A DNA stretch of 64,000 nt from positions 11,773-75,772 of IMG/VR virus record IMGVR_UViG_2700988850_000001; one strand, 5' to 3'. This document shows, one piece after another, positions 20,593 to 25,748 of this stretch. Position 1 is the stretch's first letter, and each line of letters begins with the position of its first letter. The notes beneath the pieces are model-generated. The model was given only the letters and a program-made list of their open reading frames with translations. It was not told where the DNA came from and made no database searches. Origin of the DNA: a virus (lineage: Duplodnaviria > Caudoviricetes). A program made the translations under genes and the position numbers.

Positions 20593-20853
20593 GTGCAGGA
20601 AGAAGAAACGTTAGGCTGGAACGATCGGGTTCCTGAGCCTGCACTTGTCCGTGGCGCACTCGTAGCAGTTTCGGCAGTTGTTGCGGTTGTCGTCGGCCAT
20701 GAAGTCGATGTTGCGTGGGTAGACTACGTGACGAATATCTACGCGGCATTGTCTGCACTTGTTGCTGGCATTGTCATTCGACGCAAGGTCACCCCCGTTG
20801 AGGTGTCGAATGCGAACGTGCAGGCGGCACTTTACTCTGACCCCCCGAGGTAG
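20593..20853 (+). CDS. Two-TM membrane protein, putative holin
   Basis: AGGAGG RBS before GTG 20593; EPALVRG...IRRKVTP with two hydrophobic segments; directly before endolysin. Confidence 0.6.
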   Translation: MQEEETLGWNDRVPEPALVRGALVAVSAVVAVVVGHEVDVAWVDYVTNIYAALSALVAGIVIRRKVTPVEVSNANVQAALYSDPPR

Positions 20854-20855
20854 CA

Positions 20856-21845
20856 ATGGCGTACATTGAAATCCTCTCCCCCAATAAGCACTACAAGGGG
20901 TTCAAGAAGAACATCATCGTTCTTCACACGAACGAGCCTGGCCCCTACGCGCCTGGCAAGTTTCCTGGTACTGCCGAGTCTCTTGGCCTGTACCTTAAGG
21001 ACCCTTCTCGTCAGGCAAGCTACCAGCTTATCGTGGACCGCAACGGCGACGTGTGCCGAAGTGTGCGGGACACCGATTGCGCATGGGCGGCGGGGCCGAT
21101 TGCCAACAACGAAGGCCTTCACATTTGCGTGAACGGCTGGGCAGCTCAGACCCGCGCAGAGTGGTTGCAGTACGATAAGCAGCTCAACCAGACGGCGGTT
21201 GAGATTGCACGCTGGTGCAAGCAGGAAGGCATTCCCGCAAAGAAGCTTACCCCCGCAATGTTCAAGGATGCGGAGTGGGGCATCGGCGGACACGGCGACG
21301 TTGCGCTTGCGTGGCGAGAGACAGATCACACTGACCCAGGAGCAAACTACCCGTATGATGTGCTGATTCAGAAGGTGCTTGCCATTCTGAATCCCGCACC
21401 GCCTGCGGGCAATGCCGGAAACGGAGCAGCAAAGATGAGCGATGAGATGATCCAGTTCATGGGTCCGAGTGGTGACGGCTGGATTGAGCTTGCACCACAG
21501 AAGGACCCCCAGGGCAAGTCGTTCTCGATCTTCAAGTTCCTTCAGGGCAAGGAACCGAACGTCAAGAAGCAGACGGTTGTCGAGGCAATCGCTACGCTTA
21601 TCTTTGAGGCTACGCTTCGCATCCGCCCGTACCGGGGCAAGGATGCAGACCGCGTACCTGAGACCGTCCTTGGTCACGCGGCAACGGCAGCCGGTACCGG
21701 CCTTGACAACCGCGAACTGCTGTTGCAAGTGCTGCTGAATCAGCAGGCCATTGCTGAGAAGGTCGGCGTTGCCCTTCCGGACATAACTCTACAGGGTCAG
21801 CCGGTCCCCGGAGAGCTTCTTGGAGAGCCTGCACGTAAGGAGTAG
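20856..21845 (+). CDS. lysA: Endolysin (lysin A), N-acetylmuramoyl-L-alanine amidase
   Basis: IVLHTNE, ASYQ, AWAAG, GGHGDV and HTDPG Amidase_2 zinc motifs. Confidence 0.88.
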   Translation: MAYIEILSPNKHYKGFKKNIIVLHTNEPGPYAPGKFPGTAESLGLYLKDPSRQASYQLIVDRNGDVCRSVRDTDCAWAAGPIANNEGLHICVNGWAAQTRAEWLQYDKQLNQTAVEIARWCKQEGIPAKKLTPAMFKDAEWGIGGHGDVALAWRETDHTDPGANYPYDVLIQKVLAILNPAPPAGNAGNGAAKMSDEMIQFMGPSGDGWIELAPQKDPQGKSFSIFKFLQGKEPNVKKQTVVEAIATLIFEATLRIRPYRGKDADRVPETVLGHAATAAGTGLDNRELLLQVLLNQQAIAEKVGVALPDITLQGQPVPGELLGEPARKE

Positions 21846-23228: not shown

Positions 23229-24440
23229 TTACCCCTTCAGTGAGACACTTGGATTCGGGTCGCTGTACGTCATGCTGAACACTTCCTTGAGCTGGGCACT
23301 CTTCTCGTCGCCAAGCTCATTGGACTTGATCAGTGCATCTACCGACGACACGTTGACCTTTGCAATCGTCTGCATCACCTCAGGTCCGACGATAAGACCT
23401 ACCTGCCTGGTGTCAACCTGACGAGATGCCTTGCTCTTGTACTCGACCGTGAAGTTGTCAGTCTCCCAGCGGTCGATATCCATTTCCTGAGCGCGTCGGT
23501 CGATGATCTTCTTGATCTCACCAGCCGCATACTTGTTTGCCTTCTCGGCAGCATTGGCTTCGTAGAGCGCACGCAGCAGATCATCGTCGGTTTGATGCGA
23601 CCAGGTGCCACCATTCTCTGCGTTCTTCTTCAGAGTCTTGCAGGTAGCCTTGAGCGGGCAGTACGTGCAACCGTCGTGGATAGTTTCTTCCACGTCCTTT
23701 TCATCCATGGCAAGGATGATGTTGGCCGTCTCCCGTATATCCTTCCAGCTCTCACGGCATTCCTCTACCGTGTACTTGACCTGGACCTCGCCGTACCGGA
23801 GCATGTCAGACATGACCCAGATTTCGTCAGCGTTCGAGTCCTTGAACTGGATGGACGCCGCCACCGCATACATCTTGAACTGAAGCTTTTCCTTCACGTC
23901 CGAGTTGCTGAGGTTCTTGCGGTAGCTCTTGTAATCGACAACGCGGATGATGTGCTTCCAGTTGTCGCCAGCCTGAGGAGTCGGGCTAACTTCGCCCGTG
24001 ACAACGTTCTCCCAGAACTCGTGGCAGCAGTCCCAAACGTAATTGTACTTCTTGAGACCGTCGTTCGTCTTGATCATAATGTGCGACTTGAGTTCGGTGG
24101 AGATGACCCGAACCCTGGCGAGATTGTCGCTACGCTTGAACCAGTTCTTCAGCATCGACACGCCGTCCTTGTAGCGTTCGTCGTGGCGATCTGAGAACTT
24201 GAACACCTCCTTGAATGCCTCGTGGAAGAACTCGAGGAGGAGCTTCTGGCTAGGCTCGTGCGTTTTCTTAATGTGCACAGCTTGCACGTACAGCTCGAGA
24301 GCCAGGTGGCAGGCGGTACCAGTGTCGGCAGGTCCGCCATTCTCTGAGCGAGGAACGCGCTTGATGTACTCAGCCCAGTACCTCTTGCTGCACCCAATGA
24401 AGGATTCAAACCTCGAGGCACTGATGGAATAGAGCTGCAA
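23229..24440 (-). CDS. RecB/Cas4-like PD-(D/E)XK exonuclease
   Basis: SASR..C.KRY, GT.CH, VVDYKS, QFKMYA and C..CP....C Fe-S-type motifs. Confidence 0.85.
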   Translation of the reverse strand: MQLYSISASRFESFIGCSKRYWAEYIKRVPRSENGGPADTGTACHLALELYVQAVHIKKTHEPSQKLLLEFFHEAFKEVFKFSDRHDERYKDGVSMLKNWFKRSDNLARVRVISTELKSHIMIKTNDGLKKYNYVWDCCHEFWENVVTGEVSPTPQAGDNWKHIIRVVDYKSYRKNLSNSDVKEKLQFKMYAVAASIQFKDSNADEIWVMSDMLRYGEVQVKYTVEECRESWKDIRETANIILAMDEKDVEETIHDGCTYCPLKATCKTLKKNAENGGTWSHQTDDDLLRALYEANAAEKANKYAAGEIKKIIDRRAQEMDIDRWETDNFTVEYKSKASRQVDTRQVGLIVGPEVMQTIAKVNVSSVDALIKSNELGDEKSAQLKEVFSMTYSDPNPSVSLKG

Positions 24441-24455
24441 CTTATCTCCTGTGGG

Positions 24456-24656
24456 TCATTGTTTCTTGTTTCGAGTTTGTAGTTTTCCACCCCAGATACC
24501 GAAGCGCTCGTCCATTCGAACCTGGTAGTCGCTGCACTCGTCTCGCACTGGACACGACATGCAAAGCTTCTGCGCCTCTAGCCTGCGCTTAGACTGGCCT
24601 CGCTCCGCGAAGAACGCATCTGGGTCTAACGTGCCACCGCAGCTAGCGTCTCGCAT
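24456..24656 (-). CDS. whiB: WhiB-family transcription factor domain (probably expressed as a frameshift fusion, see findings)
   Basis: (W)MRDASC...C..C.....C...GIWGG: four Cys plus G[IV]WGG. Confidence 0.85.
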   Translation of the reverse strand: MRDASCGGTLDPDAFFAERGQSKRRLEAQKLCMSCPVRDECSDYQVRMDERFGIWGGKLQTRNKKQ

Positions 24657-24673
24657 CCACGGTTCGTCTTGAG

Positions 24674-24976
24674 CTAGGAAGTCTGCGTAGAGGGTGCGCT
24701 CTCCTTGGGCTTCCCACTGGCCTTCACCGCAGGTGCAGTCTGAACCGGGTGAGGAAGGCTTCGGCTCTGGGTAACGGGGAGAACAGGGGATACTCCCTCG
24801 CTGCTTGACGATGAGTCCGCAGATTCCAGAGCAGACAAGTCTTTTGGGTTGGTCACCTCTTCCGGTGTGACTGCCTTCGGTCGGCAGTCCATGAAGTTCA
24901 CGCCCGGAAGGGGGATGCGTTCGTTGTCGTAGAAGTGGACCAGAGGTTGTGGCTGCGGGTCCATGGGGTCTGACAT
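24674..24976 (-). CDS. Hypothetical protein; 0-frame partner of the WhiB frameshift
   Basis: GAGG RBS and ATG 24976; contains in-phase C CCA AAA. Confidence 0.55.
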   Translation of the reverse strand: MSDPMDPQPQPLVHFYDNERIPLPGVNFMDCRPKAVTPEEVTNPKDLSALESADSSSSSEGVSPVLPVTQSRSLPHPVQTAPAVKASGKPKESAPSTQTS

Positions 24977-25037
24977 GCGGTTTCCTCTCTATGGATCAGG
25001 GGTCAAGCATTACGGTACCACGCGGTACGCTGAAAAC

Positions 25038-25748
25038 CTACGAGAACAATCCCACATCATCCTGCAATTTGCGGACTGCCTTCTTCCAGTTGTTCTCGTC
25101 AAGCTCCATTGCGATCGCATTTCTTCCGATCTCCTTGGCTGCCCTGACTAGCGAACCGCTTCCGCCGAATGGATCGACAACCAGGTCTCCCTCGGATGAT
25201 GAGTGCCGGAGGAGAATCTGTAGAAGTTCTACTGGTTTTTCGTGGGGATGGATCAGTGTGTTTGCCGGAAGCTGGCCCACACGGATAACGCCAGGGCGCC
25301 GTTTGTCAGTACGAATCCTCTTCCCTTTCTTGAGGAAGAGGATAACCTCGTATGAGGTGCCCCATGAGTTAGTATCCCCCATGCTCGCGCCATTCTTCTC
25401 CCAGATGAGCATGTTCTTGTACGTGAATCCATGACGACTAAGGTCATGCGCAACGCCGATCCAATGGTCAAGGACATGCCATGAGGTGAAGATGTATAGG
25501 TCGCAATCATCCGACGTTTTGGGTAGCAGAGAATCCATAACCTTGTTAAATACTTCGATTGCCACCTGTGGGTCTGAATCGTTAGCAATCTTCCGCGCAT
25601 ACTCCTTGCCCTTCTCGGTGACCGACTGATTGCTGATCGCGTCAATCCCGAAGGGCGGGTCGGTGATCACACAGTTCACCGACCCGCTCGGGAGAATGGC
25701 GCACAAGTCAACGGCATCGCCGAGCCAGATATCGTGCACCGTTTCCAC
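25038..25748 (-). CDS. DNA N6-adenine/N4-cytosine methyltransferase (beta class)
   Basis: TDPPF catalytic motif, HPHEKP, and DPFGGSGS SAM-binding motif in beta order. Confidence 0.9.
   Translation of the reverse strand: METVHDIWLGDAVDLCAILPSGSVNCVITDPPFGIDAISNQSVTEKGKEYARKIANDSDPQVAIEVFNKVMDSLLPKTSDDCDLYIFTSWHVLDHWIGVAHDLSRHGFTYKNMLIWEKNGASMGDTNSWGTSYEVILFLKKGKRIRTDKRRPGVIRVGQLPANTLIHPHEKPVELLQILLRHSSSEGDLVVDPFGGSGSLVRAAKEIGRNAIAMELDENNWKKAVRKLQDDVGLFS

Follow-up and report, generated by a model that had tools for sequence, protein, structure and literature searches.

A WhiB-family regulator gene of a tailed phage is most likely expressed as one gene through a programmed −1 ribosomal frameshift at the slippery heptamer C CCA AAA. 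The gene lies on the minus strand of the IMG/VR record IMGVR_UViG_2700988850_000001 (Duplodnaviria; Caudoviricetes), a virus record of 75,772 bases from which we analyzed a stretch of 64,000 nucleotides, hereafter the window, whose numbering is used throughout. An upstream open reading frame (ORF) of 100 amino acids, ORF A, begins at ATG 24976. The WhiB frame, which is the −1 frame of ORF A, is open from stop to stop over 24995..24456 (minus strand, 179 codons), and its first ATG, GTG or TTG codon is ATG 24656. A sequence-only reading of this DNA had proposed recoding on the grounds that the WhiB frame stays open far upstream without a start codon, that the conserved Trp of the domain precedes the ATG, that ORF A carries C CCA AAA in phase, that the 0 frame goes on as low-complexity Ser/Pro sequence and that a −1 slip adds further Cys motifs ahead of WhiB. 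Each of these features was reproduced: the frame is open and without a start over 24995..24656, the Trp lies at 24659..24657 with position 1 of the PF02467 profile on it, the heptamer occupies 24848..24842, a Ser/Pro-rich 0-frame tail runs to TAG 24676..24674, and −1 reading gives PKRLVCSGIC...DCTCGEGQW...EPWMRDASC. From the heptamer onward, the −1 frame contains 130 open codons that run through a four-Cys module and the WhiB domain, the first start lying 64 codons after the site.

24456..24976, minus strand: whole predicted recoded gene, 0 frame 24976..24842, then −1 frame 24842..24459
24976..24674, minus strand: ORF A, 0 frame, ATG 24976 to TAG 24676..24674, 100 amino acids
24842..24848, minus strand: slippery heptamer C CCA AAA, in the X XXY YYZ phase of ORF A
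24720..24833, minus strand: four-Cys module, C-x-G-x-C ... C-x-C-G-E-G, −1 frame
24456..24659, minus strand: WhiB domain, −1 frame, Trp 24659..24657 to stop 24458..24456, with four Cys, GIWGG and the internal ATG 24656
24656..24456, minus strand: ATG-started WhiB ORF, 66 amino acids, with all four cluster cysteines and 58.9 bits on PF02467
24981..24990, minus strand: Shine-Dalgarno (SD)-like sequence AGAGAGGAAA before the ORF A start, −10.3 kcal/mol, spacing 5

In the proposed mechanism, ribosomes would initiate at ATG 24976 with the help of its good SD sequence (duplex energies were computed against an anti-SD 12-mer) and would read 45 codons. At C CCA AAA, a fraction of them would slip back by one base, with tRNA-Pro re-pairing from CCA to CCC in the P site and tRNA-Lys from AAA to AAA in the A site, where the codon is a rare one. 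Base 24842 would be read a second time, and the slipped ribosomes would go on in the −1 frame to yield a product of ~173 amino acids, 45 from ORF A and 128 in the −1 frame. This long product would combine a short conserved N-terminal motif, the four-Cys module and a complete WhiB domain including its aromatic Trp. Ribosomes that do not slip would end at TAG 24674 and release the 100-amino-acid protein with an unconstrained tail. The slip itself and its efficiency are predictions from the layout, its conservation and the selection acting on the −1 frame. A −1 slip would be the simplest route of entry into the WhiB frame, and it would explain the conservation of the heptamer.

Conservation of the heptamer and the two-frame layout

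We compared 20 loci, representing 18 distinct sequences: the window, GenBank loci L001 (Rhodococcus phage Perlina) to L005 and L017 to L020, IMG/VR loci L008 to L015, and soil contigs L023 and L024, which differ from each other by three bases. They comprise phages of Rhodococcus, Tsukamurella and Gordonia, IMG/VR records and the two soil contigs. Perlina is the closest named relative, with 67.9% nucleotide identity across the region. Alignment of relatives, a check that the sequence-only reading had proposed, showed that the heptamer and its phase are kept in 20/20 loci: in each of them, an X XXY YYZ heptamer that is in phase immediately precedes the conserved P-(K/F)-R..C-x-G-x-C. Four loci (window, L001, L023 and L024) spell it CCCAAAA, and the other 16 spell it CCCTTTA. 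Its letters thus differ between lineages, and pattern, phase and place are kept. That one homologous site carries two spellings is a natural "covariation" argument for slippage there, of a kind that is rarely available. The two-frame layout recurs in Perlina, which shares with the window an identical 20-nt stretch that starts with CCCAAAA. Taken together, site, phase and two-frame layout are conserved in diverged relatives.

The codons at the site are rare in both spellings. AAA makes up 8.1% of the 791 Lys codons in the window's long ORFs, and TTA 1.0% of the 1,467 Leu codons in the window and none of the 123 in the relatives' long ORFs. This rarity in both heptamer spellings points to selection on the nucleotides themselves, and the rare A-site codons AAA and UUA may by themselves favor slipping. 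No tRNA genes were found in the window.

Relatives came from several searches. Using the −1-frame protein as query, tblastn returned full-length matches in Tsukamurella and Gordonia phages, and the module alone matched 95 phage records (88 Gordonia, six Tsukamurella and one Rhodococcus). An alignment-based scan of IMG/VR gave nine loci, eight with the layout and one (L016) an ordinary WhiB gene with its own start; the window protein alone found two loci there, neither with the layout, and the exact DNA pattern of the slip region had no match in IMG/VR. Among GTDB species genomes, there was one unrelated match and no prophage copy was seen. Of 79 loci from a metagenome scan, only L023 and L024 carry the module; among the others whose match extends upstream of the Trp, the five that were read (L025, L032, L034/L035, L075 and L087) are ordinary WhiB genes without it.

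The breadth of this distribution bears on whether the two frames arose by error in sequencing or assembly, or by an indel that recently inactivated a gene once encoded in a single frame. Any single assembled record could carry a homopolymer miscall, but the two-frame layout recurs in all 20 loci from independent isolates and assemblies. Metagenome contigs from four runs of two studies have no gap over 801 bases at the site, so the indel for which the sequence-only reading had advised checking is absent from them. No single-frame homologue was found, and an error of this kind is effectively refuted. Slippage of RNA polymerase at the C3A4 or C3T3 run would restore the frame at the level of the transcript, and a homopolymer-containing site is indeed present. 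However, productive transcriptional slippage needs runs of about seven or more identical bases, whereas those here are 3–4 bases long, and it has no need of the X XXY YYZ phase that is nevertheless kept in 20/20 loci. We regard this explanation as very improbable.

Homologues that encode module and WhiB in a single frame, which the sequence-only reading had named as evidence against recoding, did not turn up. A word-indexed protein search returned 13 matches, all covering only 45–57% of the query (the WhiB part), and a module profile run against 1.84 billion protein representatives gave two matches at E ≤ 0.001, neither of them a single-frame fusion; an upstream ATG in L023/L024, described below, is a caveat here. 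One of the two profile matches, a 2,830-amino-acid repeat protein, was rejected as a module–WhiB homologue.

The only module-like protein in the same library is the 112-amino-acid fragment P0015 (..PCGEGQWAAQG..FANFLAE..EW..). It looks chimeric, and its ends look like an assembly artefact; the flanking stretches are presumably a common product of assembly or contamination. The fragment hints at a further CCCAAAA-type lineage.

Heptamers of this form are scarce elsewhere in the window. Over 16,184 codon positions in its 47 long ORFs, 12 in-phase XXXYYYZ heptamers occur where ~63 would be expected with uniform bases, an approximately five-fold depletion. Another in-phase heptamer with a long −1 extension, CCCCCCG at 20841..20847, was rejected as a candidate; the extension belongs to the next gene, which has its own ATG at 20856.

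Selection on the two frames and what they encode

Comparison of the window with Perlina separates the stretches on either side of the heptamer. Upstream of it, codon differences number nine synonymous and 22 non-synonymous in the 0 frame, against five and 28 in the −1 frame. In the ungapped 192 nt from the heptamer to the ATG, the −1 frame shows 15 synonymous and 17 non-synonymous differences, and the 0 frame four and 28; mismatches over these 192 nt number 14, 12 and 25 by −1-frame codon position. For this overlap, the ratio of non-synonymous to synonymous substitution rates (dN/dS; Nei–Gojobori, NG86) is 0.34 in the −1 frame versus 1.41 in the 0 frame. Across 12 non-independent pairs of loci, overlap dN/dS is lower in the −1 frame in ten, tied in one and higher in one.

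A closely related variant strain, represented by the metagenome contigs, carries substitutions with the same polarity. Two of them, at 24720 and 24726, leave the −1-frame residue as it is and alter that of the 0 frame, and six of the seven within the WhiB stretch 24456..24659 are synonymous. Upstream of the heptamer, 24929 G>A is silent in ORF A and turns a −1-frame codon into TGA; the −1 frame of Perlina is closed by a stop 15 codons ahead of the heptamer, and −1-frame stops occur there in one or both members of every dN/dS pair. Because the variant strain has this TGA and Perlina a stop, chance accounts for the −1 frame being open ahead of the heptamer in the window. Between the heptamer and the ATG, the synonymous and dN/dS patterns, the variant substitutions and the invariant −1-frame residues described below lead us to infer that the WhiB frame is translated, and that the 0-frame tail beyond the heptamer evolves freely.

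Judged from its sequence, the C-terminal part is a bona fide WhiB-like (Wbl) domain. It scores 59.3 bits on PF02467 against a cut-off of 23.6, with profile positions 1–57 on residues 113–171 of the read-through frame. In the −1 part, C70, C96, C99 and C105 (C...C-x2-C-x5-C) and the G117–G121 turn are invariant in alignments A1 and A3, as are W64, F79, F80 and W119, and a DPD-FF motif is present. In the excerpted text of PMC13013590, the Wbl aromatic patch AP1–AP4, which serves binding to region 4 of sigma-A, consists of W3, F17, F18 and W60 of M. tuberculosis WhiB1, and W64, F79, F80 and W119 match these four positions. Translation from ATG 24656 would lose the AP1 Trp (W64).

Ahead of the domain, residues C6, G8, C10, G35, C38, C40, G41, E42 and G43 of the four-Cys module are invariant in alignment A1; in L023, C38 is displaced and the third Cys lies elsewhere. 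The module has no Pfam family and gave no usable ESM Atlas match. Metal binding by it is a guess.

Codons 1–45 of ORF A are common to the trans-frame product, and codons 46–100 form the unconstrained Ser/Pro-rich tail. The N-terminal motif (F/Y)xD(F/C)R..A..PE is common to ORF A and the relatives' 0-frame ORFs. ORF A itself had no Pfam match and no PHROG match at E ≤ 0.01, and tblastn of this short, low-complexity query against phages gave no match, Perlina included. The 0-frame products of three relatives match phrog_6890 at 1e-65 to 7e-42, which the window's ORF A does not:

L004:938-1357, phrog_6890 0-frame ORF, labelled "endonuclease"
L002:968-1390, phrog_6890 0-frame ORF, labelled "endonuclease"
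L019:959-1408, phrog_6890 0-frame ORF, labelled "endonuclease"

The name is also found on the RefSeq copies. The relatives' 0-frame ORFs had no Pfam match even at E ≤ 1, and the "endonuclease" label of phrog_6890 seems unfounded.

The N-terminal parts of several relatives (L002:968-1213, L003, L004, L005 and L019) contain a segment of ~40 residues with a thrice-repeated T-A-F (TAFxxH..QTAF..TAFELE). It is wholly absent from the window, whose N-terminal part is shorter, and from Perlina.

The PHROG family phrog_11832, a 33-position profile of "unknown function", matches residues 97–121 of the −1 product (E 3.6e-8; window 24486–24560, minus strand). It looks as though this family was built from the 33-amino-acid WhiB stubs annotated in relatives. 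In 14 of the 20 loci, the first ATG, GTG or TTG of the WhiB frame is the Met of C-M-x-C-P, 33 residues past the Trp, and GenBank records of this group annotate either a WhiB stub of 102 nt (33 amino acids) or no gene at all.

Entry into the WhiB frame and candidate stimulators

The annotation of Perlina implies two separate genes, a 100-amino-acid protein and a 66-amino-acid WhiB protein which in the window would start at ATG 24656, with the open −1 frame between them meaningless. An ATG does exist, the ORF that it opens retains all four cluster cysteines and 58.9 bits on PF02467, and a Met or GTG codon stands just past the Trp in the window, L001, L023/L024 and L019/L020. Yet the 20 nt before ATG 24656 contain no SD sequence (duplex −2.6 kcal/mol), 14/20 loci have no start there, and a 66-amino-acid form would be without the AP1 Trp. 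Nor would two genes account for purifying selection on the −1 frame over the 64 codons upstream of the ATG, with their invariant Cys and Gly residues. A short isoform could coexist with a long one, but alone it does not explain the conservation, and we consider two independent genes improbable.

A further route would dispense with both the ATG and the frameshift, translation of the four-Cys-WhiB protein beginning within the −1 frame, at a non-canonical codon close to the heptamer. In Perlina, entry into the −1 frame must fall within the 15 codons before the heptamer, and an SD-like stretch that could serve such a start is present at most loci examined:

24854..24863, minus strand: SD-like sequence GGAAGAGGUG, possible upstream stimulator, ending 5 nt 5′ of the heptamer, −12.5 kcal/mol

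An SD-like or G-rich stretch lies 4–15 nt upstream of the heptamer in 13/13 loci tested, with duplexes of −8.4 to −12.5 kcal/mol. Against a background with a mean of −4.65 kcal/mol, 7.5% of 1,500 random 24-mers reach −9 and 12% reach −8. However, no ATG, GTG, TTG or conserved near-cognate codon lies between this stretch and the first Cys; indeed, in the loci read, none occurs anywhere from the final −1-frame stop to the first Cys. A non-canonical start would also leave the in-phase heptamer in two spellings unexplained, as well as the conservation of the 0-frame N-terminal motif, which always lies directly upstream, and L023 is without the SD-like stretch. Little probability remains for this route.

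Downstream of the heptamer, the sequence-only reading had described an H-type pseudoknot:

24815..24836, minus strand: stem 1 hairpin GUCUGC/GCGGAC, arms 24836..24831 and 24820..24815, 5 nt after the heptamer

The letters of this proposal hold for the window, where the stem 1 loop UCUGG has a possible partner CCAGA at 24770..24766, 72 nt downstream. Soil contig L023 keeps stem 1, with a loop UCCGG and a CCGGA 64 nt downstream that amount to one compensatory change, although its minimum free energy folds do not use the stem. In Perlina, the structure is broken: stem 1 falls from −7.1 kcal/mol in the window to −1.9 at the same place, and the loop partner is missing. Folding, with tools that do not fold pseudoknots, gave a z-score of −1.21 for the window, 25 of 200 shuffles being as good. 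On these results the pseudoknot is not supported, although it is not refuted either.

A hairpin of 5–6 bp lies ~44 nt past the heptamer (24777–24797, minus strand) and is kept in the window (GGGAG/CUCCC, −10.1 kcal/mol) and Perlina (L001 ~2895–2912; GGAAG/CUUCC, −10.3 kcal/mol), one G:C pair being replaced on both sides by A:U. It is too distant from the slip site for a classical stimulator.

Several observations weigh against expression by frameshifting. A Met codon follows directly after the Trp in all three CCCAAAA lineages (window, L001 and L023/L024), and L019/L020 have a GTG in this place; at the remaining 14 loci the residue is Thr or Lys:

24654-24656 of the window, minus strand: Met codon after the WhiB Trp
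L001:3036 and L023 ~1199: Met codon after the WhiB Trp
L019:1423 and L020:1444: GTG codon after the WhiB Trp

Where such a codon follows the Trp, internal initiation might conceivably yield a short WhiB isoform beside the product of frameshifting. The −1 frame of L023/L024 happens to contain an ATG, 72 codons ahead of the slip site; even there, the frame with the better SD sequence is the other one, and it is that frame which encodes the conserved N-terminal motif (DDFTEFRP). Selection is not uniform either: the pair L002/L004 has a dN/dS of 1.23 in the −1 frame versus 0.85 in the 0 frame, and L019/L020 is the tie. Folds 3′ of the heptamer are no better than shuffles among the loci folded (z-scores −1.60 to +1.37), and RNAalifold on ten sequences finds only three conserved pairs. 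The upstream SD-like stretch is lacking in L023 (−3.0 kcal/mol) and may be a side effect of codons; among the Gordonia loci it falls on codons for Gly-Gly-Arg. Finally, an AlphaFold2 model of the −1 part from a nine-row alignment has a pLDDT (predicted local distance difference test) of 38.3, too poor to show a fold for the module.

Predicted output and comparison with known systems

If ribosomes do slip at C CCA AAA, the relative output of the two products would plausibly govern how much phage WhiB protein is made and so "set the dose". By analogy with other Wbl proteins, this WhiB would act on the primary sigma factor of the host. A more elaborate possibility, which we hold to be rather unlikely, is that the slip is a regulated sensor of the host's translational state and not a fixed-ratio device. 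The rare A-site codon would then make frameshifting more frequent under translational stress or when the cognate tRNA is in short supply, UUA being the bldA-type developmental codon of Streptomyces. Output of the long WhiB form would report the host's translational state, the four-Cys module would contribute a second input, from metal or redox state, and the 100-amino-acid protein made without a shift, which has the same N-terminal motif, would be a competitor of the long form, in the way that IS911 OrfA competes with OrfAB.

The mechanism proposed is the classical −1 programmed frameshift of bacteria and phages. Frameshifting by −1 in tailed phages is textbook knowledge for tail chaperones and some capsid genes; to our knowledge, it is not known in these phages for transcription regulators. 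Among the regulators of actinobacteriophages, the WhiB family is the most common one. The sequence-only reading knew of no such recoding outside tail chaperones and capsid or tail extensions, and in line with it our literature search found no paper linking WhiB or Wbl proteins to frameshifting, the supplements of PMC8612146 and PMC13013590, which lay outside the search and may list truncated forms, excepted. In the portion of the actinobacteriophage WhiB survey PMC8612146 that was available as text, the word "frameshift" does not occur, and neither does "WhiB" in the available main text of the PRFect paper.

If frameshifting at this locus is true, dozens of public annotations would be corrected, among them the 33-amino-acid stubs, the missing genes, the "endonuclease" label and the stub-based PHROG family. 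It would also reveal a previously unseen four-Cys module attached to a WhiB domain, and provide a clean natural setting in which to study how the level of a phage regulator aimed at the host sigma factor is set or sensed through recoding.

The predicted gene shares traits with four known systems. Its position relative to its neighbors bears on the first of them:

25748..25038, minus strand: upstream neighbor, N6/N4 DNA methyltransferase gene (PF01555)
24440..23229, minus strand: downstream neighbor, Cas4-like PD-(D/E)XK nuclease gene (PF12705)

The −1 frameshift of the tail chaperones G and GT of tailed phages was reportedly described by Xu, Hendrix and Duda in 2004. As there, an in-phase X XXY YYZ in the middle or toward the end of a short ORF leads into a −1 ORF without a start, two products with a common N-terminus would result, and the layout is conserved though the sequences diverge. 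In contrast to G/GT, which are found between the major tail and tape-measure genes, the WhiB locus lies between a DNA methyltransferase and a Cas4-family exonuclease gene and not among tail genes, and it is not a member of that family; its predicted product is a transcription-factor domain and not a chaperone, and the downstream part holds a recognizable domain.

The OrfA/OrfAB arrangement of IS911 (IS3 family) is likewise one in which a −1 slip joins a small upstream protein to a functional downstream domain without a start, and in which the protein made without a shift may have a modulating role. Bacterial sites of the IS3-family type are known to be stimulated by SD-like elements upstream. 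Unlike IS911, the phage locus encodes no transposase, its heptamer is C CCA AAA or C CCU UUA and not A AAA AAG, and its 0-frame product has a tail that appears to evolve without constraint. With tau/gamma of E. coli dnaX it shares the traits of bacterial-type −1 frameshifting, an A-site codon for Lys and, on the 5′ side, an SD-like element. The dnaX shift truncates its product and requires a strong 3′ hairpin, whereas the slip proposed here would extend the product, and no conserved 3′ structure was found.

The last comparison is with the Wbl proteins themselves (PF02467), as described in the available parts of PMC8612146 and PMC13013590. The phage product has their four Cys residues, DPD-FF, GIWGG and the aromatic patch with its N-terminal Trp. 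What sets it apart is its predicted dependence on recoding, together with the invariant four-Cys module and the short N-terminal motif that precede the domain.

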